A stretch of 64,000 nt of DNA from Bacteroidota bacterium (GCA_016183775.1 JACPDY010000002.1:16060-80059); one strand, 5' to 3'; shown: positions 33,055-54,780, counted from the first letter of the stretch. The notes: generated by a model not told the origin, from the letters alone. Numbers and translations are program-made.

Positions 33055-34611
33055 ATGAAAACAAATTCTTCCGAACTATTTGACACGATCAAATCTCTAA
33101 GCACACAGGAGAAAAAACGAATCAGAAAAGAAATGTCTCAAAATAACAAAGACAAAAAAACACTATTATTATATGATCTTATCGACAAACAAAAAAAATT
33201 TGACGATGCCGCTATTCAAAAAAAACTGGGTCATCCTAAATGGTACCCGCAGCTAAAAAAATATTTACTTGAACGTCTTACCGATAAAATATTCAGCGGA
33301 AATCCCGATAAAAAAAACTACACTTATGTGCTCAGGTTAATAACCATTGCCGAACAATTTTACGCGAAAGGATTGTTTAAACAGTCACAAAAGAAATTTG
33401 AACAAGCCGCCGACACCTGCAAAAAAAACGACTGGCTGGAATATATCCCGATCATCAATGCCAGGCTTAGCAATATTATAGGCACTAAACACGAGCAAAG
33501 AAAAAATTACATTTTTTATACAGAAGCCTACCAGGCTTTAAATCAATCCTATTTGGAAAAAAAATACTCGCTCTTGTTTCGCTGTTTGGAATTCTCAAAC
33601 AAAACAATGCAATCAAAACAACTTATAAACAATCTGAATATAAATGAATGCTTATCTGATGAAACGCGCCTGACTACCCTGCTTCAAAAACTGCATTACT
33701 ACCAATTTTTAGCTTCCTATTATAAAAACATTGAAATCAATCATAGCCAAAGCTATTTCTATTGCAAAAAATATCTCGATGTTGTAGTGAAAAAAAATCA
33801 GGAAGATGAAAATAAAAATGCGGCTTCCGAAAGCCAGAAAACTTCGCGCGAAAGAAATAATATTGTAGGCTTGCTTAATGTAATCGTCGCGGCAATTAAT
33901 GCAAATTTATTTGAAGATTTAAATGCCCTGTATCTATCATTCCTTGACCTGAAAAATAAGTTCAACATAAAGGATGATCACAGTCTGGCTCTCCTGTTCG
34001 AGGAAAGCCGTTTAATTCTTTACCTGTTAATTTCCACTTCTAATATCACAAGACGAGGATTGGAACATCCGGATTTCGATTTCTATCTCAGGCAATTTTA
34101 TCATAATGAAAATAAACTACCCCGGCCAACATCAACATCCTGCAATGAACTCATCGCTTTCACCTTCTTTATGAAAAAAAAATGGGCCGATTGCACCGCT
34201 TCAATTAATAAAATAGTAAATGACAACGAGATCTACAAAATTTATTCAGAAACATACGCTAACATACTTCTTCTCCGGCTATTCGTGAATTACGAAACAG
34301 GGGATCTTGATATCCTGGATTTCAACCTGAAGAAAACGGAACGATATTTCGGGAAGCGCTATTGGGCTTTGCCATACGAAAATCTGATATTGTCATTTTT
34401 CAACGAAATAACAATCAACGGTCAGGCTGCTCACTTCAACATATTGAAGAAATACAAGAGCCATCTGGATCACTTACTATTAACTGACAGATCATTCGCA
34501 GCAACGTATTTAGCTGAAAGAATATTTATTGATTTCGGCTGTTGGCTCGATTCCAGGATCACCAATAAGCCACTTAGAGATGTGTTAAAAGAAAAATGGA
34601 ATAAGAATTGA
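33055..34611 (+). CDS. ~517-aa family protein A (AT-rich, Lys-rich, predicted cytoplasmic alpha-helical); function unknown
   Basis: No signal peptide; MKTNSSELFDTIKSLSTQEKKRIRKEMS N-terminus shared with paralogs at 46514 and 53230; stop is 6 bp from the stop of the convergent giant gene 34618..37404. Confidence 0.6.
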   Translation: MKTNSSELFDTIKSLSTQEKKRIRKEMSQNNKDKKTLLLYDLIDKQKKFDDAAIQKKLGHPKWYPQLKKYLLERLTDKIFSGNPDKKNYTYVLRLITIAEQFYAKGLFKQSQKKFEQAADTCKKNDWLEYIPIINARLSNIIGTKHEQRKNYIFYTEAYQALNQSYLEKKYSLLFRCLEFSNKTMQSKQLINNLNINECLSDETRLTTLLQKLHYYQFLASYYKNIEINHSQSYFYCKKYLDVVVKKNQEDENKNAASESQKTSRERNNIVGLLNVIVAAINANLFEDLNALYLSFLDLKNKFNIKDDHSLALLFEESRLILYLLISTSNITRRGLEHPDFDFYLRQFYHNENKLPRPTSTSCNELIAFTFFMKKKWADCTASINKIVNDNEIYKIYSETYANILLLRLFVNYETGDLDILDFNLKKTERYFGKRYWALPYENLILSFFNEITINGQAAHFNILKKYKSHLDHLLLTDRSFAATYLAERIFIDFGCWLDSRITNKPLRDVLKEKWNKN

Positions 34612-34617
34612 ATTGCA

Positions 34618-37404
34618 TCAAGGCACGGCAAGATCAATATTTATGCTGCAGCCGTTTTTATCTTTTATATTTATAGTATAAGCACCCGGGCACAGCTGAT
34701 TTTTATATCTCCTGGCAGATCCATCGGGCCACAAATAAGTGTACGGGCCGGTGCCGCCTGTGGCAGTTACAAGTATCCATTCTTTGCATCCGCATGCTGT
34801 ACAACCAGCGGCACCTTTGGCAAACTGACCAATTAAATTACATACAGTGCAAGGGCTAATAGTTATGTTTATGCTTTTGCTGCTGCTATCGCAGGTGGTT
34901 TTTGCTTTAAGCTGCACAGTGTAATTGCCTGGTGTTGTATATACTATACCTGTTGGGTTTTGGTTAACTGAGGCAGCGGGGGTACCGCCCGGAAAACTCC
35001 AGGTATAGCTTACAACGCTATTATCGCAACTAATGGAAAAATTGCCTGTGAAATTTATTGGTGTGTTGTTGCATAAAGGGTTAGTGCTTGTTGAAGCGAC
35101 GAGTGCGGTTGTTTTATCAAAGCCACAACTGTTTTTGTACAATTGGGCTACAAAGGCATCACTGGTTCCGCCCCCATAAACCGTTTGATGTGCTGCGGGA
35201 GTAACGGGATAGCTACCCCCGACATACCCCGTCATATATACAAAGCAGCCATAAAGGGTTATAACACATTCTTCATCATGAGGTATTGCCGGACTGCCTA
35301 CGTAGGAGGAACAAATGAGCTGTCCAGCCTGACTAAAGTGAGTAACAAAGCCATCTTCTTCACCTCCTAATGTTTGCTGCCACGCGCAGGAACTTACGGG
35401 AAAGTTTAAGCTATAGGTATCTCCCGATACATAAACGTCATTTGTAAGTTGATCCACCGCGACAGACAGCGCATAATCACGATCCGATCCTCCCAGGTAA
35501 GTTGCCCAGATACGACTTGCAGCGCCTCCGGCACTGTCAAATTTCACAAGAAAGGCATCATAAAAAACACTGCCACCAAAAACATTTTGAAATCCACCGG
35601 CAGCGATACCAATAGCGCTGGTGGTCTGGCCAGCCATATACACATTTCCTGCTACATCGGTGGCCACGCTGTTACCCCCATCATAAGCCGTTCCTCCATA
35701 GTAAGTGGCCCAGAGGCGTCCGCCTGAGGTGGAGTTAAATTTCACAAGAAAAGCATCAGTACCACCGCCCAAAACATTTTGAAACCCACCTGAAGCGATG
35801 CCTGCAGTACTGGGAGTATTTCCGGCAAGATATACATTTCCTGATGCATCGGTGGCTACGCTTTTACCCATATCATCACCTGTTCCTCCGTAGTAAGTGC
35901 CCCAGACACGGGATCCAGCCCCGCTAAATTTCACAAGAAAGGCGTCAAAAGTTCCGCCTCCAAAAATATTTTGAAATCCAGTGGAAGCGATACCGGCAGT
36001 GCTGACTGTATATCCGGCCAGATACACATTTCCCAATGCATCCGTGGCTATGCTTTGACCATAATCACCACTCATTCCTCCATAATAAGTAGCCCAAAGG
36101 CGGGTTCCTGACACAGAATTAAATTTTACAAGAAAGGCATCAAAAGTACCCCCAAAAATATTTTGAAATCCGGCGGAGGCTATACCTGTAGTGCTGGTGG
36201 TTTGGCCGGCAAGATAGATATTTCCTAATGCATCGGCAGCTACACTTTTACCCTGATCACTACCAGTCCCTCCATAGTAAGTGGCCCAGAGACGGGCTCC
36301 GGCCCCGTTAAATTTCACAAGAAAAGCATCCGCGCCTCCGCTCTTAACATTCTGAAATCCAGCGGAGGAAATGCTTGCAACGCTGCTGGTCCAACCGCCT
36401 AAATATACATTTCCCGATGCATCGGTTGCTATGCTGGTCCCAGCATCACCACCTGTTCCCCCATAGTATGTTACCCAGGGGTCTACCACTAAAGCATGTT
36501 CCGGGTTCCAGGTTCCAAGTTCAAATGTTACAAGCCCCTCTCCGGCTCTCCCCGGGAGGGAGAGAGTTAAATTGTAGTTAGCTTTTACATCAACAATTTT
36601 CCCGTTTATGTTTTGGTAAACTCTGGGTATTGATTCGGTAAATTCGTTTACACTTGTTTTAATTACCAAACTGCCTTCGCGATTAATGTGTATGCTTTCG
36701 GCTCCGCTCCAGCGAAGTTTAATTTGATTGGGGTTGGCATGGGGTTGTACTACCAGATCATACTTTATCCCCTGCCTGTCCGTCAGGCAAGCATTTTGCT
36801 TGTTACCATAATAGGTTATGTCAATACCATCATAAATATTTTTGTACGTTACTTTGTTGTATTGCTTTACGTTTAATACTCCATTGGGGCAATGCGCGTA
36901 GTAGTAATTGTTGTAGCCCTCTATTTCATCTTCATTAACAAACCTGCAGTTAGCATTGGCTCCGGCAAAATCCATATCAACCCTATTTACTTTAATTTTT
37001 TCATCACGCATTAATTCATCTTGTTTCGTATCCTCATCGGCTTCGGTTAATGTTCCGGCATTAATTAATGCTTCCACCTTTTCGTGAACTTTGTATTGGA
37101 CTTCGCCCATATTGTTGTACACATAACTAATGCCGCTTTTGCGTAAATAAATATCAGCACCCCTGCTTTCACCTTTATATAAAATATCGGGACAAAGATT
37201 ACCATTCATATCAGCTACCTGACCTTTATTAGGGATAAAACATAATCCGTTGCTACCCAATAGTTTCCCGGTTTGGGCATTTCCCAAAGCATATGTTTGT
37301 TGAGCATGGCTATGACTCACCATTAACCCAATCCCAACAAAAAATAAAATATTTTTTATCCCCGACGAGAGGCCAAGTCGTTTATTTTTGCTTTTTGATT
37401 CCAT
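34618..37404 (-). CDS. giant secreted SBBP beta-propeller surface protein with PKD-like domain and conserved Cys-rich C-terminal module (paralog 4)
   Basis: Signal peptide ...ILFFVGIGLMVSHSHAQQ; ENKGQ-type N-terminal domain (PNKGQ...QPHANPNQI); ~9 SBBP repeats (ATYYGGTG.D.G.SVATDA.GN.YLAG.T.ST.GIAS.GFQN..GG..DAFLVKF); PKD-like segment; C-terminus ...CTACGCKEWIL...DLAVP-stop. Confidence 0.75.
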   Translation of the reverse strand: MESKSKNKRLGLSSGIKNILFFVGIGLMVSHSHAQQTYALGNAQTGKLLGSNGLCFIPNKGQVADMNGNLCPDILYKGESRGADIYLRKSGISYVYNNMGEVQYKVHEKVEALINAGTLTEADEDTKQDELMRDEKIKVNRVDMDFAGANANCRFVNEDEIEGYNNYYYAHCPNGVLNVKQYNKVTYKNIYDGIDITYYGNKQNACLTDRQGIKYDLVVQPHANPNQIKLRWSGAESIHINREGSLVIKTSVNEFTESIPRVYQNINGKIVDVKANYNLTLSLPGRAGEGLVTFELGTWNPEHALVVDPWVTYYGGTGGDAGTSIATDASGNVYLGGWTSSVASISSAGFQNVKSGGADAFLVKFNGAGARLWATYYGGTGSDQGKSVAADALGNIYLAGQTTSTTGIASAGFQNIFGGTFDAFLVKFNSVSGTRLWATYYGGMSGDYGQSIATDALGNVYLAGYTVSTAGIASTGFQNIFGGGTFDAFLVKFSGAGSRVWGTYYGGTGDDMGKSVATDASGNVYLAGNTPSTAGIASGGFQNVLGGGTDAFLVKFNSTSGGRLWATYYGGTAYDGGNSVATDVAGNVYMAGQTTSAIGIAAGGFQNVFGGSVFYDAFLVKFDSAGGAASRIWATYLGGSDRDYALSVAVDQLTNDVYVSGDTYSLNFPVSSCAWQQTLGGEEDGFVTHFSQAGQLICSSYVGSPAIPHDEECVITLYGCFVYMTGYVGGSYPVTPAAHQTVYGGGTSDAFVAQLYKNSCGFDKTTALVASTSTNPLCNNTPINFTGNFSISCDNSVVSYTWSFPGGTPAASVNQNPTGIVYTTPGNYTVQLKAKTTCDSSSKSINITISPCTVCNLIGQFAKGAAGCTACGCKEWILVTATGGTGPYTYLWPDGSARRYKNQLCPGAYTINIKDKNGCSINIDLAVP

Positions 37405-37409
37405 AATAC

Positions 37410-39071
37410 TTATGGTGTTGTAAGGTTAACATTTACACTACAGCCATTTTTATCTTTAATGTTTATAGTGTAAGCGCCGGGACACAGATCATTTTTGTAC
37501 CTGTTAGTATATCCATCCGGCCATAAATAAGAATAAGGGCTTGTTCCTCCTGTTGCAGTTATCATTATCCATTGTTTGCAGCCGCAACCGGCACAACTGG
37601 AAGTTCCTTTAGTGAATTGCCCGGCAAGCAAACATCCACATGAACTTACTGTTATATTTTGTTTCAATGTATCAGTGCCACAAGCATAACTGAGCACCAG
37701 CTTAACAGTATACGTTCCGGCACCACTAAATGTATGATTTGCACTATTAACAGTGGAAGTATTGTTTATACCAGAGGCCGGGTCGCCAAAATTCCACAAA
37801 ACAGAACTAATAGCATTTGAAGATCCGGAACAGTTCGTAACATTAACTTGTGGCGCCGTAAAAATTCCATTCAGACAATTGACAGATGCCGTAAATGGTG
37901 GCGGTGGTGGCTTAAAATAATAGTTTACAAAATTCGGGAACCCATTCCTGATTATCCTTCCTGATAAAGCAACTCCATTTACTACAAAATTACATCCAAC
38001 ACCAAGCGTGTTCGGATTATTAATAACTCCTGCCCAGCTTCCTTGCAATAAGGCAACGTATATTTTTTTATCCGGACCTAACTGAAGAGCACCCCTGAAA
38101 GCAGCTGGTGTGTTGATCAGAATTCCGGAATTAGCTACGGCTGCGTTAGAGCCTGCGCAAAGGTTAAACTGGTAAATATGACCGGAGACACAAGCCCCAT
38201 ACATTTTTGTACCATCAGGTGAGAATTCTACACCATATAGAATACTGCCGCCGGCAGATAACGGCAACACGATACCGTTGGAAACCACTCCTGTTGAATT
38301 ATTAAAATCAAATAACTCAAAACTCATACCCTGTACCGCGGAACCAAGCTTTTTTCCGTTCGGAGATGCTTTTAATTGTCCGTGTGTATTCAGAACAGAG
38401 CCATTAACCACAAGACCGGCGTTGCTCACAACCGGCACTGTGTTAACACCTGCAGATGTAACGAGATAAGTACGGAAAGCGTTTGAATTCCAGTCATGTG
38501 TTACCACCCATACATCTTTGTTATTGCAATGTCTTACTCCCGCTATTTTTTCACAAGAGGGCGTGTTAAGCAGAATGTTTTTGTTGGCTGTTACATTACC
38601 AAGCCCCGCGTTCAGGGTCATATCAACTTCTGAATATCTTATCCCTCTTAGTTGTGCTTCATAGTCTGCTGTAAATATATAATAGATTGTGGTACTTCCC
38701 GGTTTTTGGATAATTACAGACGATTGTGTTGAGGAATTATGACCCATCAAACCAAATCCATTGGGCATCTGGATGTGATTTTTGTTCCAGACAAATGTTC
38801 CATCGGTATAAAAGAGCAGGTTTCCAGCCACGTCAGATATGGAGGCACACCCTTCTGATGCAAACATTTGACCATCAGTAACTGCAACGGGAGGCCCAAA
38901 ATTAAAATGCAAACCCGCATTCTGCCCAAAATACCACCAGTTTGCTTCACCCTGTGCATATACTTCATCATTAATTCTCAGAAAAAAAGGAGAAAAGTAA
39001 AGGAAGACAATTGCCAAATGAATTTTAAAAAATTTCTTATGGTAAAGGCATCTTTCTATCTTCATGGTCAT
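37410..39071 (-). CDS. secreted protein with a distinct non-SBBP N-terminal domain, PKD domain and the same conserved Cys-rich C-terminal module
   Basis: PKD motif WNFGDPASG...HTFSGAGTYTVKLV; C-terminus GQFTKGTSSCAGCGCKQWIM...NLTTP-stop; 5 bp downstream of 34618..37404. Confidence 0.65.
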   Translation of the reverse strand: MTMKIERCLYHKKFFKIHLAIVFLYFSPFFLRINDEVYAQGEANWWYFGQNAGLHFNFGPPVAVTDGQMFASEGCASISDVAGNLLFYTDGTFVWNKNHIQMPNGFGLMGHNSSTQSSVIIQKPGSTTIYYIFTADYEAQLRGIRYSEVDMTLNAGLGNVTANKNILLNTPSCEKIAGVRHCNNKDVWVVTHDWNSNAFRTYLVTSAGVNTVPVVSNAGLVVNGSVLNTHGQLKASPNGKKLGSAVQGMSFELFDFNNSTGVVSNGIVLPLSAGGSILYGVEFSPDGTKMYGACVSGHIYQFNLCAGSNAAVANSGILINTPAAFRGALQLGPDKKIYVALLQGSWAGVINNPNTLGVGCNFVVNGVALSGRIIRNGFPNFVNYYFKPPPPPFTASVNCLNGIFTAPQVNVTNCSGSSNAISSVLWNFGDPASGINNTSTVNSANHTFSGAGTYTVKLVLSYACGTDTLKQNITVSSCGCLLAGQFTKGTSSCAGCGCKQWIMITATGGTSPYSYLWPDGYTNRYKNDLCPGAYTINIKDKNGCSVNVNLTTP

Positions 39072-39166: not shown

Positions 39167-40321
39167 CTATTTCAATTTAACATTTTTTATTGTGTGAATA
39201 TGATCCGGCTGTTTTTTTACATGATAAAAATCAAGCACATTTCCCAAATAAGTATCCGCCTTAGGCAACGGAACCCCGACAATATCTAATATACGTCTCG
39301 TTTTTTTATTTTCAAAAACCTGTTTATCTGCTATAAACTCTAAAAACATAGACAGATTTTGTAACTTTTTTTTATTCTTTATGTTAGAAAATATACTAAA
39401 AATGAACAGCAGAAATTTAAAAAGCCTTAATGGAACCAACCTGGTAGTTGGGATAGCGTAGTTCTTGCTTTTGTAAAACTCCTGAACTTTTTTTGCAAGT
39501 TCCTGAATTTCGATGGATTGCCCGGGCCCCGAAGTAAGGTGAAGTATTTTTCCAATCGTGGACGTTTGCTGCGTTGACCAGACAATAACTTTAGCCACAT
39601 AATCAGAAGGCACAGTATCCAGTTTTACATTTTTTATTTGGGGAAGAAAGCCTGCGGTATATTTCCCTGTTAAAAAATCTGTTAAGTGATAAAAAATCTG
39701 GAAATGAATAGTTTTTCCTGTAATAGAATCGCCAACCACCATGCTCGGCCTGTGAATAGTTATCGGCCAGCCTATATTTATTTTTTGTAAAACCAGTTCT
39801 TCCGCTTTTGTTTTTGACGACTCATAAGTATTATGAAAGGCTCTTGGCGTAATAAGCGGCGTTTCAGGGATGCTGCCCGGCATTTTACCGGCAATACCTA
39901 CCGTGCTTATATATTCGATTTTTTCAAGTGTGCCATTTTGTAAACATAAATCAGCCAGCTGCAATAAATTTTCTGTGGAACGTACGCTTGAGCGGTGCGC
40001 CTGCTCCTCCGTCATATTCATTTTAACAGTGGCCGCACAATGAATAATATGTGTTATAGAATGAATGATCTCTTTAAATATAGTTGGATTTATGCCAAAC
40101 CCATCTTCAGTAATATCGCCACGGACCGGAATTAGTGTTGGTACATCTGCATTGAAATCCCAATACGCTAACAGGTCATTGAAACGTTCTGCCAACTTTT
40201 CGTCAGATTCAGCACGCAGCAAAAGATAAACCCTGGATGGATTAAGTTCCATCAGGAAAGGCACTATGCTGCTGCCCAGGGCTCCAGAGGCCCCTGTAAG
40301 AAATATAGTTTTTAGTGACAT
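39167..40321 (-). CDS. NAD(P)-dependent thioester/fatty-acyl reductase (NAD_binding_4, male-sterility-type SDR)
   Basis: Rossmann motif LTGASGALGSSI; catalytic YESSKTKAE; 384-aa length typical of the thioester-reductase family; overlaps the upstream ligase stop. Confidence 0.6.
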   Translation of the reverse strand: MSLKTIFLTGASGALGSSIVPFLMELNPSRVYLLLRAESDEKLAERFNDLLAYWDFNADVPTLIPVRGDITEDGFGINPTIFKEIIHSITHIIHCAATVKMNMTEEQAHRSSVRSTENLLQLADLCLQNGTLEKIEYISTVGIAGKMPGSIPETPLITPRAFHNTYESSKTKAEELVLQKINIGWPITIHRPSMVVGDSITGKTIHFQIFYHLTDFLTGKYTAGFLPQIKNVKLDTVPSDYVAKVIVWSTQQTSTIGKILHLTSGPGQSIEIQELAKKVQEFYKSKNYAIPTTRLVPLRLFKFLLFIFSIFSNIKNKKKLQNLSMFLEFIADKQVFENKKTRRILDIVGVPLPKADTYLGNVLDFYHVKKQPDHIHTIKNVKLK

Positions 40322-42027
40322 AAAAAATAGTATCCCTTTTTGTTTTTAAGTTCTTCGAAAAAGTAATCAAAGCTCCCGCGCGACAGTTCTATTTTTTTGT
40401 ATAACTCCTCGATTTCGCTTTGATAATTTTCCTCAATTGCTTTTCTTCTTATTTTTAAGCCGGCTGTAAGTTCTGCTTTTTCAATGGAAAAGCTATTTTC
40501 TAAAATAATTCCGCCTCTTATTTTTTCGTAAGAGCTGCGGTTTAAATTAGTTTTTTGAATTGAATGAACGGTATCATCTACAATGGTACGAATATTTTTA
40601 TCCTTACTGCTTTCTTTGTTAATTGTAACCAGGCAAGCCAGGCAGGGCCTGTTTGCGCCAACCAGTACTACCTGGTTTAAAAACGGACTGGCCATTAACT
40701 GCTCACCAATTGCTCCGATTGAGATCTTGCGTCCTGTGGACATTTTGATCAGATCATTTTTTCTTCCGGTAAGAAATAAAAAACCTTGTTTATCAAAATA
40801 ACCAAGGTCTCCTGTAGGGAAAAATCCATCATCACTAAAATGGGTTTTTGTGTCTTTGTCAATATACCCATTAAAGAGTCCAGGGCCTTTTATGAAAATT
40901 TCTCCGTCAGCTGCAATTTTTACCTGGTTAGGAAGCAATGGTTTTCCAACACTCCCCAATTTATATTCTTTGGGTCGATTTAATGCAATTGGAAGCACAT
41001 TCTCACTCATCCCGTAAGCTTCTATAAGAGGGATGCCAATGGATTCAAAAAAAGTTAATACCTCTAATCGGCATGGGGCGGAGCCTGTAAGCATATACTG
41101 CATCTTTCCACCGAAAATAGCGGCTATTTTTTTTAACAATAAGGTATAAACAGGTTTGTAAAAAACATTGCTTTTTTTAATCCTTAAAAGCCGGTTAAGC
41201 AAAAGCCTGATTGAGAACGGTTGGGAATTCATTTTCTGTTTTACCGAGGCGTACACCTTTTCATACAATAATGGTACACCAATTAATACGGTAGGTTGAA
41301 TTGTTGGTAAAACATTAATTATGTCCTTTGGATTAGTAACAAAGTAAATGGAAGCATTCGTGATAAGCGCACAAAGATTAACCATTCGTTGAAAAAGACT
41401 TGCCAATGGCAGCCAGCAAATTGTTCGTCCATTTTCCTGGGCAAATGCGATAGAAAGCGTTTGAGCCGCCTGTATAAGTTGCCTGTGTGTGTATGCAATT
41501 CCCTTTTGTTTGCCTGTACTCCCGGAGGTGAAAATGATGGTAGCCACTGTATCTGCTGATACAATGGGCCAAACAGTTCTTTGGGTAACAGGCAAATCCA
41601 CCCAGGTATTTTGATCTATATTGTAAAAAACATCTTTTGATATATTAAATTGTTCCTGAAGCGTTACAGCTGTTTTTTTGTCCTCAATAATAACTAATTG
41701 AGGGGATACCTGTTTAATTATTTCATTCATGGAATCGGGCCGGGCATGCGTTTCAATACCGACAATGGTTGCGCCAATCAGTAAACAGGCTTTTTCAAAT
41801 AAATCCCATTGAATGGAAGTCGGTAAAATAATTACTACCCGATCTTCAGTTTTAATGTTTAACGCTAATAAAAGTTCCGCCGCGCTTTTTATTTTTTCAT
41901 AATAGGCAGTCCAGTTAAGATCCGACCAAACCCCTACTTCCGCGTTTTTATACATTGCAACTTTCTTTGCTGGAAAGCGCTGCACCTGTTCAGTTAAAAA
42001 CTCCGGAATAGTTAATATGCTTTCCAT
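40312..42027 (-). CDS. acyl-AMP/acyl-CoA ligase (AMP-dependent synthetase family)
   Basis: AMP-binding motif IIFTSGSTGKQKGIAY and GDLGYFDKQGFLFLTGRKNDLIK (A8-like). Start chosen at MESILTIPEF (42027) because that Met and 21 bp upstream are what was duplicated at 44371..44562; the ORF extends to 42111. Confidence 0.7.
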   Translation of the reverse strand: MESILTIPEFLTEQVQRFPAKKVAMYKNAEVGVWSDLNWTAYYEKIKSAAELLLALNIKTEDRVVIILPTSIQWDLFEKACLLIGATIVGIETHARPDSMNEIIKQVSPQLVIIEDKKTAVTLQEQFNISKDVFYNIDQNTWVDLPVTQRTVWPIVSADTVATIIFTSGSTGKQKGIAYTHRQLIQAAQTLSIAFAQENGRTICWLPLASLFQRMVNLCALITNASIYFVTNPKDIINVLPTIQPTVLIGVPLLYEKVYASVKQKMNSQPFSIRLLLNRLLRIKKSNVFYKPVYTLLLKKIAAIFGGKMQYMLTGSAPCRLEVLTFFESIGIPLIEAYGMSENVLPIALNRPKEYKLGSVGKPLLPNQVKIAADGEIFIKGPGLFNGYIDKDTKTHFSDDGFFPTGDLGYFDKQGFLFLTGRKNDLIKMSTGRKISIGAIGEQLMASPFLNQVVLVGANRPCLACLVTINKESSKDKNIRTIVDDTVHSIQKTNLNRSSYEKIRGGIILENSFSIEKAELTAGLKIRRKAIEENYQSEIEELYKKIELSRGSFDYFFEELKNKKGYYFLCH

Positions 42028-42048
42028 GATGTTGAAATTTTTATTTAG
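41857..42048. repeat. 192-bp direct repeat, copy A (5' end plus RBS of the acyl-AMP ligase gene)
   Basis: About 93% identical to 44371..44562. Confidence 0.8.
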
Positions 42049-42079
42049 AATTAGTTTCCTGTTGTTTTTTATTAAAAAT

Positions 42080-42751
42080 TTATTTGTTGATGATAATTTT
42101 TTTTGCCTCAAGTATGTATTCGGGACAGATAGATAGCGGGATTAATTGAATAAAATAAATTCCGGTTTGTTGGTTGCTTAAATCAAGCCCTGTTTTTTCT
42201 CCGATAATTTTAGTTTTAAAAATAATTTGTCCCAGAACATCCGTAATAATCACATTACTATTTTGTTCTGCTCCCTCAATAATGAATGTTCCTGTGCCTG
42301 GGGTGGGGTAAATAGTAAATTCTGTAATTCTATTGCAACTAACCGCCACTAAATTAAAATAGTTATACTGCCCGTTAAAGTCGGTTTGTTTTAAACGGTA
42401 GTACGAAGTTCCATTCAATGGTTCATTATGGGCAAAAGTATAAGACATGGTTTGGCTGCTGTTGCCAGTACCATCAATGATGCCAATAATTTCAAAGTTA
42501 ACACCATCTATAGTTCGTTCAATGGTAAAATAATCGTTATTTATTTCTGATGCCGTTGCCCACATTAAATTTACTTTTCGGTTATTGCATTTCGCTTCAA
42601 ACGAAAGTAACCCAATTGGTAAAGGCACTTCACTACCCACAGAGCCAACACAACTAAACGAAAAGCCATCATCGTTTCCTACCGAATAAATTTGGGAAAA
42701 GGTATTTGAAAAACATCCCATTAATACAAAAAACAATAGATTTACTCTCAT
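42080..42751 (-). CDS. small secreted protein with fn3-like domain and T9SS type-A C-terminal sorting domain
   Basis: Signal peptide MRVNLLFFVLMGCFSNTFSQ (start 42751); C-terminus ...TEFTIYPTPGTGTFIIE...ITDVLGQII...GIYFIQL = Por_Secre_tail; internal LPIGLLSFEAK...NNDYFTIERT...YYRLKQTD domain shared with 51139..53045. Confidence 0.65.
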   Translation of the reverse strand: MRVNLLFFVLMGCFSNTFSQIYSVGNDDGFSFSCVGSVGSEVPLPIGLLSFEAKCNNRKVNLMWATASEINNDYFTIERTIDGVNFEIIGIIDGTGNSSQTMSYTFAHNEPLNGTSYYRLKQTDFNGQYNYFNLVAVSCNRITEFTIYPTPGTGTFIIEGAEQNSNVIITDVLGQIIFKTKIIGEKTGLDLSNQQTGIYFIQLIPLSICPEYILEAKKIIINK

Positions 42752-42789
42752 GATTTTAATTGGTTGATAAATAATAAAAACAACCCCGG

Positions 42790-44541
42790 CTAAGGCGCCA
42801 CACGAACACCACGACAACCGAAAACGTTGGAACGACTGAGGTTTGTGAGAGCTCCGAAGTAGCGGTCGGACACACGCAGGTAACTTGTAGCAGTGCTATA
42901 ATTACCGCCACGCATGTCAGTGCCTATGGCATCGGTACCTGGCCAGTTACTTGCATCGGCATTGCCCGATGCGCTTATTATACCATTGCCATGGATGCCT
43001 GTAAAAGCCCTGCCTGTGGCATTGCCAACCGTTACACAGCGTTTCCACAAGTTGCCGCTGAGTTCCATAATGCCGTAATAACTTGCTCCTACACCTACTC
43101 GTGTATTTACTCCTTGCCCGAAATTGCCTACCCGCATAGGTCCTTGTACACTTGCATGAAAGCCATAATCACAGTTGGCAGCTCCATTACTGGAAGTTTC
43201 GTTGGTTAAGCCGGCATTGCTAATGCCTGTTGCTTGTGTAACAGATGCGCTGCCCCATGCGTATTCATTTGCAACAGTGGCAAGTGTGCCTCTGGCGGCT
43301 TTTTCGTATTCCAATTCGGTCATAGGGCGCAGAGCTGTCCAGTCCAAATAAGCGGCAAGGTCTGCCCAACTTAAATAATTGCAGGCAATGCTTTGCCCGT
43401 CATTAGTTTCATCGCCAGTGCCATCACCATCAAGATCGCAATAAAAGGTAATAGGATCAGATGTATGTATTGTTGCATCACAACGAATTCCATTACGATA
43501 TTGCAAAGTCGAATTATTGGACATAACATACCTGTTTGTAACAGCGGTAGTTCCGGGGGCAAGGCCAGTAGCTGTCCTGGTATTTTGTTGGTCGCGTGTT
43601 AATTTGTTTAAAAATGCCACATATTGTGCTTGTGTAATTTCGTATTTCATACAGTAAAAGGCGTTATAACCCTTGGGGAATGCTGCAGGGATAGGTCCTG
43701 TTTGGTCGCCAGAGGAAGTAGATGGATTTGGGTAGTAGAGGTTGCCTGCGGTAGTACCTACGGTAATGGCTCCCTCGCTAGTTATTTGGTAAGGATTGGT
43801 AGTAGTGGGGTAAGTATAAAATGCTCCGCTTTCTGTACCGCCACTACCTACATAAAAACTTGCTTGCGGCACATATACCATTTCTATGGCAAATACGCAT
43901 AGTTCTACTTTATCGACGTCTATTAATCCATCTACACCGTAATTCCAACGAAGTTGTGTTCCGGTATAACTTACACTACCCTGTGCCATATCGGCATTAC
44001 GATATATAAAAATGCCATACGCACCATTGGCACCATTGTCGTTACTGGTGGTTATATTGCTGTTGGGGGGGGGGGTATGTCCATCTCCGCTGCCTGTGCC
44101 ATCCGCCCAATTTAAGGTAGCGTGGTTCCAGGTGGTTTCTCCTTCTAAACGGTATTTTACAAATACCCAGGCGGCATCCCAATTAGAGGTACCTGAAGAG
44201 GTGCGCCAAGAGTTGTCCCAACTGATATCAAACTGCACGTGGGTATAATCCGAAATGGTATTTTGACCGGTTAAGCGTACATTAGCCACATTGATATTGT
44301 TGGAAAAGCAATATTGAGGCACCGAAACTATAAGTATTACAGTTATACCAAACCAAAATGATAATAAAATGTTTAACGATAATAAAAGCTCCGCCGCGCT
44401 TTTTAGTTTTTCATAATAGGCAGTCCAATTAAGATCCCACCAAACCGCTACTTCCGCGTTTTTATACATCGCAACTTTCTTTGCTGGAAAGCGCTGCACC
44501 TGTTCAGTTAAAAACTCCGGAATAGTTAATATGCTTTCCAT
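42790..44541 (-). CDS. FGE-sulfatase (SUMF1/GldJ/GldK/PorK-like) domain protein with chimeric N-terminus copied from the acyl-AMP ligase
   Basis: FGE-domain motifs EMVYVPQASFYVGS, YCMKYEITQAQYVAFL, SWADLAAYLDWTALRPMTELEYEKAARG, GNLWKRCV, RGGNYSTATSYLRVSDR; first 57 aa (MESILTIPEF...AELLLSLNI) are ~95% identical to the ligase N-terminus because of the 192-bp duplication. Confidence 0.65.
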   Translation of the reverse strand: MESILTIPEFLTEQVQRFPAKKVAMYKNAEVAVWWDLNWTAYYEKLKSAAELLLSLNILLSFWFGITVILIVSVPQYCFSNNINVANVRLTGQNTISDYTHVQFDISWDNSWRTSSGTSNWDAAWVFVKYRLEGETTWNHATLNWADGTGSGDGHTPPPNSNITTSNDNGANGAYGIFIYRNADMAQGSVSYTGTQLRWNYGVDGLIDVDKVELCVFAIEMVYVPQASFYVGSGGTESGAFYTYPTTTNPYQITSEGAITVGTTAGNLYYPNPSTSSGDQTGPIPAAFPKGYNAFYCMKYEITQAQYVAFLNKLTRDQQNTRTATGLAPGTTAVTNRYVMSNNSTLQYRNGIRCDATIHTSDPITFYCDLDGDGTGDETNDGQSIACNYLSWADLAAYLDWTALRPMTELEYEKAARGTLATVANEYAWGSASVTQATGISNAGLTNETSSNGAANCDYGFHASVQGPMRVGNFGQGVNTRVGVGASYYGIMELSGNLWKRCVTVGNATGRAFTGIHGNGIISASGNADASNWPGTDAIGTDMRGGNYSTATSYLRVSDRYFGALTNLSRSNVFGCRGVRVAP

Positions 44542-44562
44542 GATGTTAGGATTTTTATTTAG
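44371..44562. repeat. 192-bp direct repeat, copy B (provides start codon and RBS for the FGE-like gene)
   Basis: About 93% identical to 41857..42048. Confidence 0.8.
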
Positions 44563-45661
44563 TACTAACCATACTGGTGTGACTATTGACTACAGAAACA
44601 GGTGGATCATAAGCCCCTTTTGGCAAAGTGATCTTTAGTTGATCAGGTTTAAGGGTAAGCCACTCCATAGATTTAGTGACAAACTGTCCCATAAAAATTT
44701 TATTTTTTATCATAAAATCAACAAACGGCGCCATAAACTTCCAATAAGTAAGGCTTGCTTTTCCTTCACGTATAAGCGCTGAAAATTCAGGGATATAGGG
44801 ATTATACCCGAAATGCGCGAGGTCTGAATACATCAGGAGCCATTGAATCGGATAGTTGCTGAAAATCGGACTCGCGTGTTTTGAATTTTTAACAAGGCCG
44901 AGCTCAACAACCTTTTTCATTACTTCCTCCTGATTATAGTTCCATGCATGGAAGGGCGCAATGTATCTTGGAAATATGGTACCCTCTGGATAGCGATGGG
45001 GGTTCCAAAAGCGGGAAAGTTCCTGCTCAGTAAATTCTCCGCATGCTTTTAAATGTGGAGGTGTCCAATCTGTATCAGCGATAAGCTCTTTGGAAAATTC
45101 ATAGATCATACGTTCAGGTTCAGGTTGGCCCGGAGAATAGCCTGCAAAAACCAAAGGAATTTTTTTATCCGTTGCTAATTGAAGCGCATCACCTTCAAAG
45201 AGTGGAGCATAAACATACGACAGTGAATATACGGCCCCCCTTTGTTCCTGGTGCCGCAAAATGTAACTGAACAGCTTTCTGTAGAATGCGTCGCTAGGAC
45301 GGTAAACCAGATGATCGATTTCAAGTTTAGCTATTGTTCGTTTTATATTATCCCATGCAATAGCAGGTATATTTATATCCGTTGTGAAGGCTAAAATTTT
45401 CAGCCCATACTCCACCTTTAAACGATAAAGCAGGTAAAGACTGTCTTTCCCTCCGCTAAGACAAACAACAGCATCATACTCCGCTTTACCTTTGCTGTTT
45501 CGGATGGTTTCTTCCAGATCATTTTCAAATTGAGCCCTGTTTTTATCCCAGGGAGCCAGGTGTGATTGCTTAGGGGCAAAACAATATTCACACACATTAT
45601 CAGCGTTTATGTTGGACCCTGGAACGGATTCCGGCAGCAGACATTTTTTACAGTGGCGCAT
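44555..45661 (-). CDS. PP-loop ATP-pyrophosphatase family protein with N-terminal zinc ribbon (N-acetyl sugar amidotransferase/WbuX-like)
   Basis: CKKCLLPESVPG...CEYC zinc ribbon, then PP-loop VVCLSGGKDSLYLL; ~370 aa as in that family. Confidence 0.5.
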   Translation of the reverse strand: MRHCKKCLLPESVPGSNINADNVCEYCFAPKQSHLAPWDKNRAQFENDLEETIRNSKGKAEYDAVVCLSGGKDSLYLLYRLKVEYGLKILAFTTDINIPAIAWDNIKRTIAKLEIDHLVYRPSDAFYRKLFSYILRHQEQRGAVYSLSYVYAPLFEGDALQLATDKKIPLVFAGYSPGQPEPERMIYEFSKELIADTDWTPPHLKACGEFTEQELSRFWNPHRYPEGTIFPRYIAPFHAWNYNQEEVMKKVVELGLVKNSKHASPIFSNYPIQWLLMYSDLAHFGYNPYIPEFSALIREGKASLTYWKFMAPFVDFMIKNKIFMGQFVTKSMEWLTLKPDQLKITLPKGAYDPPVSVVNSHTSMVSTK

Positions 45662-45702: not shown

Positions 45703-46323
45703 TTACTCATAATACCCTTTAATACCAAATCGCCGGGCCATTTTTTTCACCTCTAACATCATCGGCGCGATGTAATTTCCTATATGCTCATTGTATTTTA
45801 TTTCGCCTACCAGTATCGCTCCCAAGCGTTCCATTGTTGGCTGCAGTTTATAATTTACCGGAAAAAACGCGTAATCTACCTTGCGATCATTACCTACTTT
45901 AAGCGCTTCTTTTATCAGGGAATATAAAAGTTTTACGCTGCAATTTGGCTTATTTATGGCCAACATACCTACACCCGCAAATCTGCCCTGAAGCTTGGAA
46001 CGTAATTTTTTATACTCTTCATGATACTGATCGCAGGGCAATTCCTGTCCGGGATTTTCAATGATTGTTGTACGTATTGTTCCGATGTATTTTTCACCAT
46101 TACTTGCCAGCAAGTTCACTGTTCCTTTATGTGTATCGAACTTGTCGTTTAACTTTTCATCCGAAAAATTTGCCTTATTAAATTTTTTATCATCCTCAAC
46201 AAATACTTTATACCGTAACCGATAAACTACATCTAACTGATGTGTTGTTACCGCCTCCTGAACTCTGTAGTTTGGCACATTAGGGTTTGCGGCTATTAGT
46301 GCTTCTTGTTCTTCTGTTTTCAT
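45703..46323 (-). CDS. GNAT-fold acyltransferase, N-acyl amino acid synthase / autoinducer-synthase-like
   Basis: YRLRYKVFVEDD motif typical of LuxI/FeeM/exosortase-associated NAS families; ~200 aa; first gene of the co-directional operon. Confidence 0.4.
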   Translation of the reverse strand: MKTEEQEALIAANPNVPNYRVQEAVTTHQLDVVYRLRYKVFVEDDKKFNKANFSDEKLNDKFDTHKGTVNLLASNGEKYIGTIRTTIIENPGQELPCDQYHEEYKKLRSKLQGRFAGVGMLAINKPNCSVKLLYSLIKEALKVGNDRKVDYAFFPVNYKLQPTMERLGAILVGEIKYNEHIGNYIAPMMLEVKKMARRFGIKGYYE

Positions 46324-46513: not shown

Positions 46514-48070
46514 GTGAAAACCTACTCTTCCGAATTGCACGATCTTGTAAAATCTCTTAGCACGCAGGAGAAAAAGCGTATCAGGAAAGAAATGTCCCTT
46601 ACTAACAAGAATAAAAAAATAGTACTGCTATATGATATTATTGATAAACAAAATTTTTTTGATGAAGCTTTAATTCAAAAAAAATTAGGAAACCCCAAAT
46701 GGTATCCGGGTCTCAAAAAATACTTGCTCGAATACCTCACGGATAAAATATATTGCGGTAATTCCGATAAGAAAAGCAAAACCTATTTACTTAAATTAAT
46801 AACCATCGCAGAACAGTTTCACACAAAAGGATTAATTAAAGCGACCAAAAAAAAATTGATCCAGGCATTGGATCTATGCAAAGAAAATAGTTGGATAGAA
46901 TATGCGCCCATTATTAATTCTAAACTGGATAATATTATCGGAGAAAAAGCAGAGCAAAGGAAAAGTTACACTTTTTATACGGAGTCTTACCGGGCGTTAA
47001 ATCAGGCGTATTTAGAAAAAAAATATTCCATTTTATTCCGTTGCTTGGAGCATTCGGATAAGACAATACAGGCACCGGAATTTATGGCCGGCTTAAGCAT
47101 CGATGAATGTTTATCCGACGAAAAGCACCTGACAACTTTTCATCAGAAATTACACTATTATCAATTTTTAAGTGCATATTATAGACACATCGAACTAAAT
47201 TATTCTCAAAGTTATTTTTACGCTAAAAAAAGCATGGAAGTAATTCTTAAAAAAAATAAGGAAGAGGAAAATATGGAACCCTTCTCTCAGACACAACAAA
47301 ATGCCAGGGAAAGAAGTAATATGGTACAAATCTATAACCTGATCGCAGGTGCAATAAACGCAAATTTTCTTGATGATCTTTATACCCTCTTTAAATCTTA
47401 CGTTTTACTTCGAAGAAAGTTTAATATACGAAAGGGCCATATTCTTCATAAACTATACAATGAACTTTATCAATCTCTTTGTTTCCTTATTTCAGCTGTA
47501 AATATTACAAGGAGAGGGGTTGAGTCCCCGGATTTTCATTCCCACCTTCATCAATTTTATCTGATCGAAAAAAAATTACCTTACAACATATTAGTTGTTT
47601 GCAATGAAATGATATCCTTTTATTTTTTTATGAAAAGAGACTGGAATAATTGCACTTCCACCATTAACAAAATATTAAATGACAATGAGTTATACAAAAT
47701 TTATCCTGAAACATATGCCAATATGCTGCTTCTCCGGTTATTTGTAAATTATGAAACGGATGATCTGGATGTTCTAGATTATAACTTAAAAAGAACAGAG
47801 CGATATTTCGAAAAACATTATTCCGCACTGGGGTATGAAAAAATAGTCATAGCATTCTTTAATGAAATCGTCAATGATTTTTCAGGCAGAATAAAAACGA
47901 TGCAAAAATACATGGACAAAATAAATGAACTACTTTTAAATGATAGAAATTTTTCTTTTACCTATTTAACTGAAAAAATATTTATTGATTTTAAATGCTG
48001 GCTGGATTCAAAAATCACCAACAGGATGTTCACAGAGATTTTAAAAGAAAAAAAAAGAAATAAGAATTGA
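46514..48070 (+). CDS. ~517-aa family protein B (paralog of 33055..34611)
   Basis: MKTYSSELHDLVKSLSTQEKKRIRKEMS...; collinear similarity over the full length; stop is 8 bp from the stop of the convergent giant gene 48079..51138. Confidence 0.6.
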   Translation: MKTYSSELHDLVKSLSTQEKKRIRKEMSLTNKNKKIVLLYDIIDKQNFFDEALIQKKLGNPKWYPGLKKYLLEYLTDKIYCGNSDKKSKTYLLKLITIAEQFHTKGLIKATKKKLIQALDLCKENSWIEYAPIINSKLDNIIGEKAEQRKSYTFYTESYRALNQAYLEKKYSILFRCLEHSDKTIQAPEFMAGLSIDECLSDEKHLTTFHQKLHYYQFLSAYYRHIELNYSQSYFYAKKSMEVILKKNKEEENMEPFSQTQQNARERSNMVQIYNLIAGAINANFLDDLYTLFKSYVLLRRKFNIRKGHILHKLYNELYQSLCFLISAVNITRRGVESPDFHSHLHQFYLIEKKLPYNILVVCNEMISFYFFMKRDWNNCTSTINKILNDNELYKIYPETYANMLLLRLFVNYETDDLDVLDYNLKRTERYFEKHYSALGYEKIVIAFFNEIVNDFSGRIKTMQKYMDKINELLLNDRNFSFTYLTEKIFIDFKCWLDSKITNRMFTEILKEKKRNKN

Positions 48071-53229: not shown

Positions 53230-54780
53230 TTGAAAAAAAATTATCTGTTTACATTAATAAAATCTCTAAATATGTCGGAAAAGAGATATATAAAACTGTC
53301 ATTAAGGAAAAATGCAATTGGGGATAGCAGCAATTATCTTACACTCTTTGATATGATCGCTGCTCAAATAGAATATGATGAAAAAGCCATCAAAAGAGAT
53401 TTGGTAAATTATTCTTTGAAGAAGAATTTTGCCGTGACTAAGCTTTATCTATATCATTTGATTTTACGCACACTCAAAAATTTTCACTTTGAAACCTCTA
53501 CAGACATGTTGTTGGCAGATAAAATACAACAGGCTAATCTTTTACTTGATAAAGAATTATTCGATCAATGTGAAAATATTACTCTTAAAGCCTTATCAAT
53601 TGCTAACAAACACGAACTTAAGCTTAAGACCATTGAACTTTTGGATATTGAATTACGAGCACTTCAAGGACAACTGCAAATCAAAAAAATAAAAGAAAAG
53701 GCAGAGAAGTACTATAGAATGAAGCAAAAATTATGGGAACAGCAAGAACAGATATTTTACCTGCAAAAAATTGCGTATAATAATTTCGTCCAATTGAAAA
53801 CAGAATGGGTGACAGAACTAGAACAAAAAACCATTTTCAAGTCACCGAGTCAAATAAAAGAAGGAGATTTACTTTCCATACATGCTAAAATATTATATCA
53901 CCACGTCTGGAGCGGCTATTTATTCTCCGTAAATAAATCTGAAAAAACTTTCAAACATTTGATGAAGCTGGATATGTTATTTGACAAAAACCCGCATCTG
54001 ATCGGAGATTATTGTAATTTATACATTTCTATGCTAAACAATCTTAATGTTGTTTTATTGGGGCGTAATGATTTCAAGAGAGTTCTTCTTAACATAGAGA
54101 AAATGAAACTATTGAAAATGCGCTCTGTAGAAGGTCGAATACGTGTGCGCGAACGCCTGGTTAGTGCTGAAATGAGTTTGCATAAGCATACCGGAGAATT
54201 TGAGAATTCCCTGCCATTAGTGAATGAGGCAAACAAGTTGCTTGAAAACAAAAAACTGAGTGAGGTATATCGGATGGTATTTAATTTACACTTGTTTATT
54301 TACTATTTTGCGTTTGAGGAATACAAAACAGCACTTAGGTTTTTGAATCATTTCCTATCCGGATCAAGAAAAAATATTCGTAAAGATTTACATAAAACGG
54401 CACGCTTACTTTATATGATTACGCATTACAAACTTCGTAATTTTGATTATCTTGAATCATTCTTAAAAAACGCAGTACGATCTTTCAACAGCAATGAGGG
54501 CATGGATAAAATGGAAAGACTATTCCTTTCATTCTTCACTAATATTATTTTGATTACTAAAGAGGATGAAAGGCGATCACATTTTTTGACATTTAAATTA
54601 GCCCTCGAAAAACTTGAAAAGCAAAAAATAATGCTTGCAACGTATTTTTATAATTTCAATTTTTCTGATTGGGCAGAGGCAGAAATGACTAATAGAAAAT
54701 ACAAAGAATTTGTTTATGAAAAATTTCATCCGGACGCGTTGGCAAAATATACAAAACAGTTTAAAGCCCGAATAAATTAA
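53230..54780 (+). CDS. ~517-aa family protein C (divergent paralog of 33055 and 46514)
   Basis: LFTLIKSLNMSEKRYIKLSL... aligns with LFDTIKSLSTQEKKRIRKEMS; same length (516 aa), same AT-rich composition, convergent with giant gene 54844..57864 (63 bp apart). Confidence 0.5.
   Translation: MKKNYLFTLIKSLNMSEKRYIKLSLRKNAIGDSSNYLTLFDMIAAQIEYDEKAIKRDLVNYSLKKNFAVTKLYLYHLILRTLKNFHFETSTDMLLADKIQQANLLLDKELFDQCENITLKALSIANKHELKLKTIELLDIELRALQGQLQIKKIKEKAEKYYRMKQKLWEQQEQIFYLQKIAYNNFVQLKTEWVTELEQKTIFKSPSQIKEGDLLSIHAKILYHHVWSGYLFSVNKSEKTFKHLMKLDMLFDKNPHLIGDYCNLYISMLNNLNVVLLGRNDFKRVLLNIEKMKLLKMRSVEGRIRVRERLVSAEMSLHKHTGEFENSLPLVNEANKLLENKKLSEVYRMVFNLHLFIYYFAFEEYKTALRFLNHFLSGSRKNIRKDLHKTARLLYMITHYKLRNFDYLESFLKNAVRSFNSNEGMDKMERLFLSFFTNIILITKEDERRSHFLTFKLALEKLEKQKIMLATYFYNFNFSDWAEAEMTNRKYKEFVYEKFHPDALAKYTKQFKARIN

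Follow-up and report, generated by a model that had tools for sequence, protein, structure and literature searches.

Chimeric genes are known to arise by segmental duplication or insertion, either through template switching of the fork stalling and template switching (FoSTeS) or microhomology-mediated break-induced replication (MMBIR) type or through illegitimate recombination. Direct repeats of a homologous segment around an insert are also the signature of Campbell integration. With regard to protein folds, PorK, a type IX secretion system (T9SS) protein, uses a repurposed formylglycine-generating enzyme (FGE) fold (PMC12421860). Here we describe a locus in a 64,000-nt stretch of DNA (hereafter, the window) from a Bacteroidota metagenome-assembled genome (MAG; GCA_016183775.1, JACPDY010000002.1:16060-80059, on a contig of 90,049 nt), in which an FGE-like gene begins with the 5' end of the acyl-AMP/CoA ligase gene of the same locus. 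All genes of this locus are on the minus strand, and three of the predicted proteins are exactly matched by NCBI entries (MBI2268814.1, MBI2268812.1 and MBI2268815.1). An earlier note on this DNA had proposed that the ligase start was duplicated onto the FGE-like gene. The duplication stands, but synteny makes it better described as the insertion of the FGE-like gene plus a T9SS cargo gene with duplication of the target. We consider it probable, although well short of certain, that the pair entered as a 5'-truncated module after ligase codon 58.

The evidence centers on two direct repeats of 195 nt, R1 (41854-42048) and R2 (44368-44562), that align with 10 mismatches (94.9% identity). The pair had been reported as 41857-42048 and 44371-44562 with about 93% identity; ungapped alignment of those 192 columns also gave 10 mismatches, with 94.8% identity, and a repeat search returned the pair as 200 nt at 94% with a start-to-start spacing of 2514. 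On the minus strand, each copy consists of 21 nt of upstream sequence followed, from an ATG (42027 in R1, 44541 in R2), by 58 codons of the ligase. This is the composition given in the earlier note, except that the repeat is 3 nt longer than the 57 codons counted there and extends into codon 58 (ATT). R1 runs on into the intact ligase, and R2 starts in the final codons and stop (ACT AAA TAA) of the gene for a WbuX-like PP-loop amidotransferase. The 195 nt contain perfect blocks of 12, 77, 22, 8, 9, 21, 16, 9 and 11 nt. The block of 77 nt (41957-42033, partner 44471-44547, minus strand) is the longest stretch on which homologous recombination could act, and de Bruijn-graph contigs break there. 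R1/R2 is the sole repeat of more than 90% identity in the window, and the chance expectation for such a pair in 64 kb is about 1e-84. The repeat is not explained by an RNA element, as an Rfam scan of 39-47 kb gave one chance-level match only. The encoded peptides are identical at all but 4 of 57 residues (G32A, S35W, I46L and A55S, R1 versus R2) and, with only these four residue-changing and three synonymous differences among the seven coding ones, dN/dS between the copies is uninformative.

Because the source is a MAG and short-read graphs do break at the repeat, a collapsed or misjoined assembly had to be considered, but we regard it as extremely unlikely. An artefact would not generate the 10 differences between the copies, and copy-specific single-nucleotide polymorphisms lie 11-15 nt from every border of each copy. 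Short k-mers are ambiguous only across the 77-nt core, and both copies survive either resolution. Moreover, independent short-read Logan contigs matched the window at 100% identity from 45785 to 44518 (L001, SRR12113422), from 43897 to 42004 (L087, SRR12113422) and from 43586 to 41957 (L088, SRR12113421); here and below, L-numbers denote the genome loci or contigs compared and P-numbers the FGE-family protein homologues. L001 and L087 end exactly 30 nt beyond the last copy-specific mismatch, as expected of a k=31 graph on entering the shared segment, and L088 ends on the final base, at the far edge, of the shared 77-nt core. The passage from the cargo gene into R1 was reproduced by two independent runs and that from the WbuX-like gene into R2 by one, so that the raw data of the two runs contain both upstream contexts. 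These independent contigs speak against the misassembly that the earlier note had named as a possible refutation, and the repeat structure is genuine.

Both copies derive from the ligase, as had been suggested. The ligase (40312-42027, 571 aa, MBI2268812.1) has an AMP-binding (PF00501) match that begins at residue 12, and its nearest orthologue, in L003, is 64% identical overall and 54% identical over residues 1-56. A tblastn search with the 57-aa peptide matched only ligase genes, with two copies in the window and none in 79 FGE-family loci. Relatives of the locus also disclosed the arrangement before the duplication. In L003/L004, the genes for the WbuX-like protein, the ligase and the reductase are consecutive and their products are 82, 64 and 67% identical, respectively, to those of the window, where the WbuX-like gene (44555-45661, 368 aa, MBI2268815.1) is the ancestral upstream neighbor of the ligase and a thioester-reductase-type short-chain dehydrogenase/reductase gene (39167-40321) its conserved downstream partner. 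The same trio is found in L005 at 60, 35 and 41% identity, and L006 and L007 carry the WbuX-like gene followed by a partial ligase. The reductase follows the ligase wherever the contig is long enough (L003 and L005), and no FGE-like or cargo gene is present in L003/L004, L005, L006 or L007. These four distinct loci thus show the target unduplicated and uninterrupted. A scan of genome contigs with the WbuX-like protein yielded no relatives. In the related loci, the distance from the WbuX-like stop to the start of the ligase ranges from -14 to +26 nt; with its ATG 13 nt beyond that stop in the window, R2 occupies the ancestral position.

The N-terminus encoded by R2 is not native to the FGE family, of which the 119 homologues (53-72% identity) align with the window protein only from about residue 58 and have N-termini and signal peptides of their own. 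A ligase-like N-terminus native to FGE orthologues, which the earlier note had named as the finding that would contradict its proposal, was seen in 0 of the 119 proteins and 0 of the 79 genome loci examined. The signal peptide typical of the family is an ordinary one, ending in ..FA↓NN(I/V)xVSNV. In the closest FGE sub-clade there is an additional conserved stretch ahead of the signal, M..T.VVVERESNSLNIKK, with no Met nearer the signal core (P0003, P0008, P0010, P0017, P0020, P0060, P0082 and others, and L009 around 7977); it may be a genuine pre-signal extension or a conserved leader element.

In the homologous loci, the FGE-like gene does not stand alone. In at least 12 unrelated loci, a homologous Por_Secre_tail gene comes within about 30-130 nt after it (module-bearing loci: L002, L008, L009, L010, L012, L013, L020, L034, L041, L042, L049, L085 and L086), and the FGE/cargo pair is conserved as a two-gene module across many other Bacteroidota and Ignavibacteria MAGs. 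In the window, the cargo gene (42080-42751, 223 aa from its ATG) encodes a T9SS type A C-terminal sorting domain that scored above threshold (TIGR04183, 38.8 bits versus 23; PF18962, 36 bits versus 27), and the gap from the FGE stop to this gene is 38 nt, similar to the 34 nt of L002. Since the WbuX-like and ligase genes are adjacent in relatives and the FGE/cargo pair recurs elsewhere, the pair represents the insert and the ligase 5' region the target. The module-bearing loci frequently have their FGE genes in tandem arrays. In L009 (5695-6666 and 8367-9338) and L066 (6024-9321) the tandem paralogues have long stretches (975 nt in L009) in common at 88-93% identity, which suggests continuing duplication or gene conversion in these arrays. 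In L002 (4807-10472), which has the closest FGE homologue, genes for a methyltransferase and an AMP-binding ligase are likewise found upstream of the pair; since this ligase shares only 27% identity with that of the window, their proximity is probably a coincidence. Flanking repeats comparable to R1/R2 did not emerge as a general pattern in the other 79 FGE loci, where we found only paralogue-to-paralogue repeats and one pair of about 55 nt. The latter, in L078 (5489-5548 and 8802-8862; Verrucomicrobiota MAG CAZVVD010000097.1), is a direct repeat of about 55-60 nt and 88% identity that encloses an FGE-family gene together with its downstream neighbor; it may mark a further insertion or be an intergenic repeat element.

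As the earlier note had proposed, R2 supplies the start of the FGE-like gene: the 583-aa open reading frame (ORF; 44541-42790), annotated as MBI2268814.1, begins at the R2 ATG. In the predicted protein, residues 1-58 are ligase-derived, residues 59-80 comprise the hydrophobic core of the native signal peptide plus the ..CFS↓NN cleavage region, and residues 81-583 form a beta-rich N-domain followed by the FGE fold. The hydrophobic stretch that had been observed beyond the repeat was evident in Kyte-Doolittle 19-residue means of up to 2.3 over residues 52-75, and comparison with the homologues showed that it is the core of the signal peptide native to the FGE family. In the AlphaFold2 model (pLDDT 90.9, above 90 for residues 81-583), residues 39-76 form one long helix that includes this core, and the FGE fold is preceded by a beta-rich domain of about 200 residues. 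The PF03781 match (42.9 bits) was well above the gathering threshold (23.3), and the best Foldseek matches were formylglycine-generating enzymes (E 3.5e-7, with a TM of about 0.58 relative to the target). The protein is thus a PF03781 member at the domain and fold level. No conserved Cys pair, such as the one that binds the catalytic copper in true formylglycine-generating enzymes, was apparent near the C-terminus of the family consensus (FRGGxW......LRVSDR), as judged from this consensus and not from a residue-level FGE alignment. The label "GldJ-like" used in the earlier note is appropriate for the fold but not for the family. Membership of the PorK/GldK/GldJ group was considered and rejected: TIGR03525 gave 16.4 bits against a cut-off of 350, the signal peptides of the homologues have no lipobox Cys, and PorK was not among the top structural matches. 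As the borrowed residues lie upstream of the retained signal core and cleavage site, the mature exported protein is probably unaltered and the chimerism confined to the leader.

We propose the following origin for this arrangement. The ancestral locus would have been a tight cassette of WbuX-like amidotransferase, acyl-AMP ligase and thioester reductase genes. A segment of 2,319 nt (42049-44367, minus strand), consisting of the FGE-fold gene devoid of its own 5' end, the complete partner cargo gene and about 31 nt of 3' flank, would have entered the ligase after codon 58, and the same or a tightly linked event would have duplicated about 195 bp, from the stop codon of the WbuX-like gene through codon 58 of the ligase. 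R2 would then have stayed beside the WbuX-like gene, fused in frame to the FGE-like gene, with R1 restoring a complete ligase downstream of the insert. Both ligase and reductase are intact. By itself, an insertion at codon 58 would abolish the AMP-binding domain, so that only events restoring the ligase would be expected to survive. The FGE-like gene would now be translated from the ligase initiation site, 13 nt after the WbuX-like stop, and the 58-residue extension ahead of the signal core would be discarded if the precursor is targeted and cleaved.

The junction between R2 and the FGE-like gene (J1) gives an indication of how this may have occurred. The window reads TCG TTA AAC ATT / TTA TTA TCA TTT (S L N I / L L S F), the ligase at the same point reads GCG TTA AAC ATT AAA ACT (A L N I K T), and the closest FGE homologue, that of L002, reads TCT TTA AAT GTC AAA TTA TCT ATA (S L N V K L S I), with SLNIKK in others. 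The distance from SLNI to NN is 22 residues in the window, as it is in P0008, P0017 and P0060. On the basis of this in-register SLNI/SLNV motif in the ligase and in the FGE homologues, the two parents probably shared about 11 nt, CGTTAAACATT (44368-44378, minus strand; codons ..S/A-L-N-I), and J1 probably falls within this microhomology. Such a microhomology points to microhomology-mediated illegitimate recombination or template switching, without a transposase or integrase. The simplest account would be a single event mediated by microhomology, comprising two template switches or illegitimate joins, by which the truncated module was copied in and about 195 bp of the target re-copied. A scan of the insert and of neighboring genes detected no transposase or integrase domains, and no inverted repeats bracket the insert. 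A transposon, an insertion sequence and an integron cassette were considered and discarded on these grounds and on account of the duplication of about 195 bp.

Several observations weigh against this scenario or parts of it. J1 was found only in the deposited MAG assembly, where it lies 11 nt from an R2-private base, and exact-sequence look-ups of the chimeric protein, the ligase and homologue P0004 matched no contigs and so provided no independent confirmation of this junction. The microhomology was deduced from homologues at 48-66% identity and not from the donor sequence. The TCG codon (Ser55) of R2 was dismissed as a mark of FGE origin: the ligase of the outgroup L003 also has Ser there, so that this codon is no proof that the last 12 nt came from the FGE parent. 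The GC/GC3 (overall and third codon position) values of the FGE body (0.46/0.38) and the cargo gene (0.34/0.30) are within the range of the flanking genes, and composition is therefore no independent sign of a foreign origin. The signal peptide lacks the positively charged n-region (KK or KR in the homologues, but LNILLSF here), and the net charge of residues 1-57 is about -1, which makes export of the chimeric precursor uncertain. In addition, the copies are 5% apart, and outgroup polarization placed derived residues in both (G32 and A55 in R1, W35 and L46 in R2). From these figures, the event is probably not very recent. The "recent illegitimate or replicative recombination" of the earlier note thus holds as a rearrangement, and as recent in a relative sense only. 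The same divergence could also mean that the copies came from different alleles, and it makes multi-step histories possible.

The missing basic residues bring up the possibility that the chimeric ORF is a non-functional by-product, defective in export and intact only for lack of time. We hold this to be conceivable but clearly on the unlikely side. It would fit with the lack of any K or R after SLNI, unlike in the homologues, with a hydrophobic core that begins about 52 residues from the N-terminus behind residues 1-35 that were modelled as disordered, and with the lack of an alternative in-frame ATG, GTG or TTG just ahead of this core. However, at the 84 positions with a conservation of at least 95% across 117 homologues, the FGE body shows no deviation, fewer than the median homologue (one deviation), and its 1,581 nt carry no stops or frameshifts even though the flanking repeats have diverged by 5%. 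The ..VPQYCFS↓NN.. region is also kept, in register with the ..FA↓NN of the family. Furthermore, internal segments of high hydrophobicity can still be targeted co-translationally.

The divergence between the copies, with derived changes in both, leaves time for more than one event. Thus, an intact FGE/cargo module could have been inserted first, between the WbuX-like and ligase genes, and its FGE 5' end later overwritten by a duplication or gene conversion of about 195 bp, or a deletion could have joined the first 58 codons of a second whole ligase copy to the FGE-like gene. The final structure would be the same, and the window is rich in paralogous duplications. We nonetheless consider these routes unlikely, since they require two or three independent events with in-frame outcomes, an intermediate arrangement was not found in any relative, and the window has no second FGE or ligase paralogue. 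Moreover, R2 sits at the ancestral WbuX-to-ligase spacing as if it had never moved. It is also relevant here that the protein database holds no relative above 72% identity. The flanking direct repeats could also be read as the classic product of a single homologous crossover with a circle that carried the FGE/cargo genes and a captured ligase fragment of about 195 bp, the 5% divergence being that of a related-strain donor. The alternative resolution of the assembly graph would give a circle of 2,514 bp and, separately, a WbuX-ligase locus without interruption. This Campbell-type integration seems to us quite improbable: it needs a prior in-frame joining of the ligase fragment to the FGE-like gene and so only moves the problem, neither the circle nor an empty-site contig was seen, and such flanking repeats are not the rule at other FGE-family loci.

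The insertion with target duplication that we favor may be reversible. A perfect block of 77 nt exceeds the minimal segment generally required for RecA-dependent recombination, which makes precise loss of the insert through the repeats, restoring the WbuX-to-ligase arrangement, plausible. On sequence grounds, therefore, the deletion through the repeats anticipated in the earlier note is a plausible outcome. A bolder version, to which we give very little credence, is that the FGE/cargo genes and the ligase fragment make up an integrase-free, homology-borne cassette and that the locus switches reversibly between module states. RecA recombination over the 77-nt core would then excise a 2,514-bp circle with the start-equipped FGE gene, the cargo gene and one hybrid repeat. 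This circle could re-integrate into any genome with this ligase operon, the host-gene fragment serving as a portable attachment site.

With regard to the surroundings, the first gene of the apparent operon encodes a FeeM-like N-acyl amino acid synthase (45703-46323, minus strand), and genes for PKD/SprB-type secreted proteins (37410-39071 and 34618-37404) lie beyond the reductase. The spacer between the cargo and ligase genes has no terminator-like site, and terminator and sigma-70 promoter counts in the region were at chance level; these scans are not tuned to Bacteroidota and are uninformative for them. An array of genes for large secreted proteins spans 23112-63250, with eight sites (23112, 26607, 29614, 34611, 37403, 48072, 54837 and 63024) that share a 3'-terminal segment of about 230-300 nt at 60-86% identity. 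This segment encodes a Cys-rich C-terminal domain (..GQFTKG..CGCK.WI..TA.GGT.PY.YLWPDG..RYKN.LCPGAYTINIKDK.GC..), and one member of the array displayed a partial SprB-repeat Pfam match. Interleaved with the secreted-protein genes are three paralogues of 516-518 aa (33055-34611, 46514-48070 and 53230-54780, plus strand) that have no Pfam domain and match, weakly and in their C-terminal part, the BT_2802 family (ribose-utilization protein). Finally, a UvrD/PcrA-type helicase is split into two ORFs that overlap by 4 nt (58025-59539 and 59536-60435, plus strand), the first (504 aa) carrying the N-terminal UvrD domain and a portion of UvrD_C, and the second (299 aa) the remaining UvrD_C plus the tudor domain; the split may reflect a frameshift, a pseudogene or an error in sequencing.

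The locus has practical implications. As residues 1-58 of MBI2268814.1 are ligase sequence, they are unfit for homology or localization inference, and the repeats both break short-read assembly graphs at this point and make the insert potentially unstable. More generally, it is a clean natural example of a bacterial gene that lost its own start and gained that of a neighbor, in what we believe was one rearrangement. The interrupted host gene was apparently rescued by the target duplication, and the borrowed residues are confined to a leader that is probably cleavable. No new class of system is opened by these findings, nor is a long-standing question resolved.

Compared with described proteins, the FGE-like protein resembles the FGE-sulfatase family (PF03781; SUMF1/EgtB/PvdO) in its Pfam match and its structural matches to FGEs, but it is only 14-18% identical to FGEs and carries the beta-rich domain of about 200 residues before the FGE fold. 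The pairing of its gene with a T9SS cargo gene is a theme shared with the FGE folds of PorK/GldK/GldJ in the T9SS. It differs from PorK/GldK in the low TIGR03525 score given above and in that its homologues have ordinary signal peptides ending in ..FA↓NN instead of lipoprotein signals. As to the rearrangement itself, the duplicated segment of about 195 bp is far longer than the target duplications of transposons. Like Campbell integration products, the locus has a homologous segment directly repeated around an insert, and excision through the repeats would restore the locus, but there is no circular form, integrase or plasmid backbone, and the homology is a host coding fragment fused in frame. 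When the literature was searched for template-switch insertions in bacteria, most of the papers retrieved dealt with eukaryotic retroelements. The closest parallel is with FoSTeS/MMBIR-type events, in which, as here, direct copies of the target flank the insert, each contiguous with one ancestral neighbor, a short microhomology (here a probable one) lies at the junction, no transposase is present and a new ORF is built on a borrowed start. Unlike in those examples, the duplication in the window also rescues the interrupted host gene, and the mechanism is deduced from the product. With these differences, the locus belongs to a known kind of rearrangement, of which it is a well-documented example.

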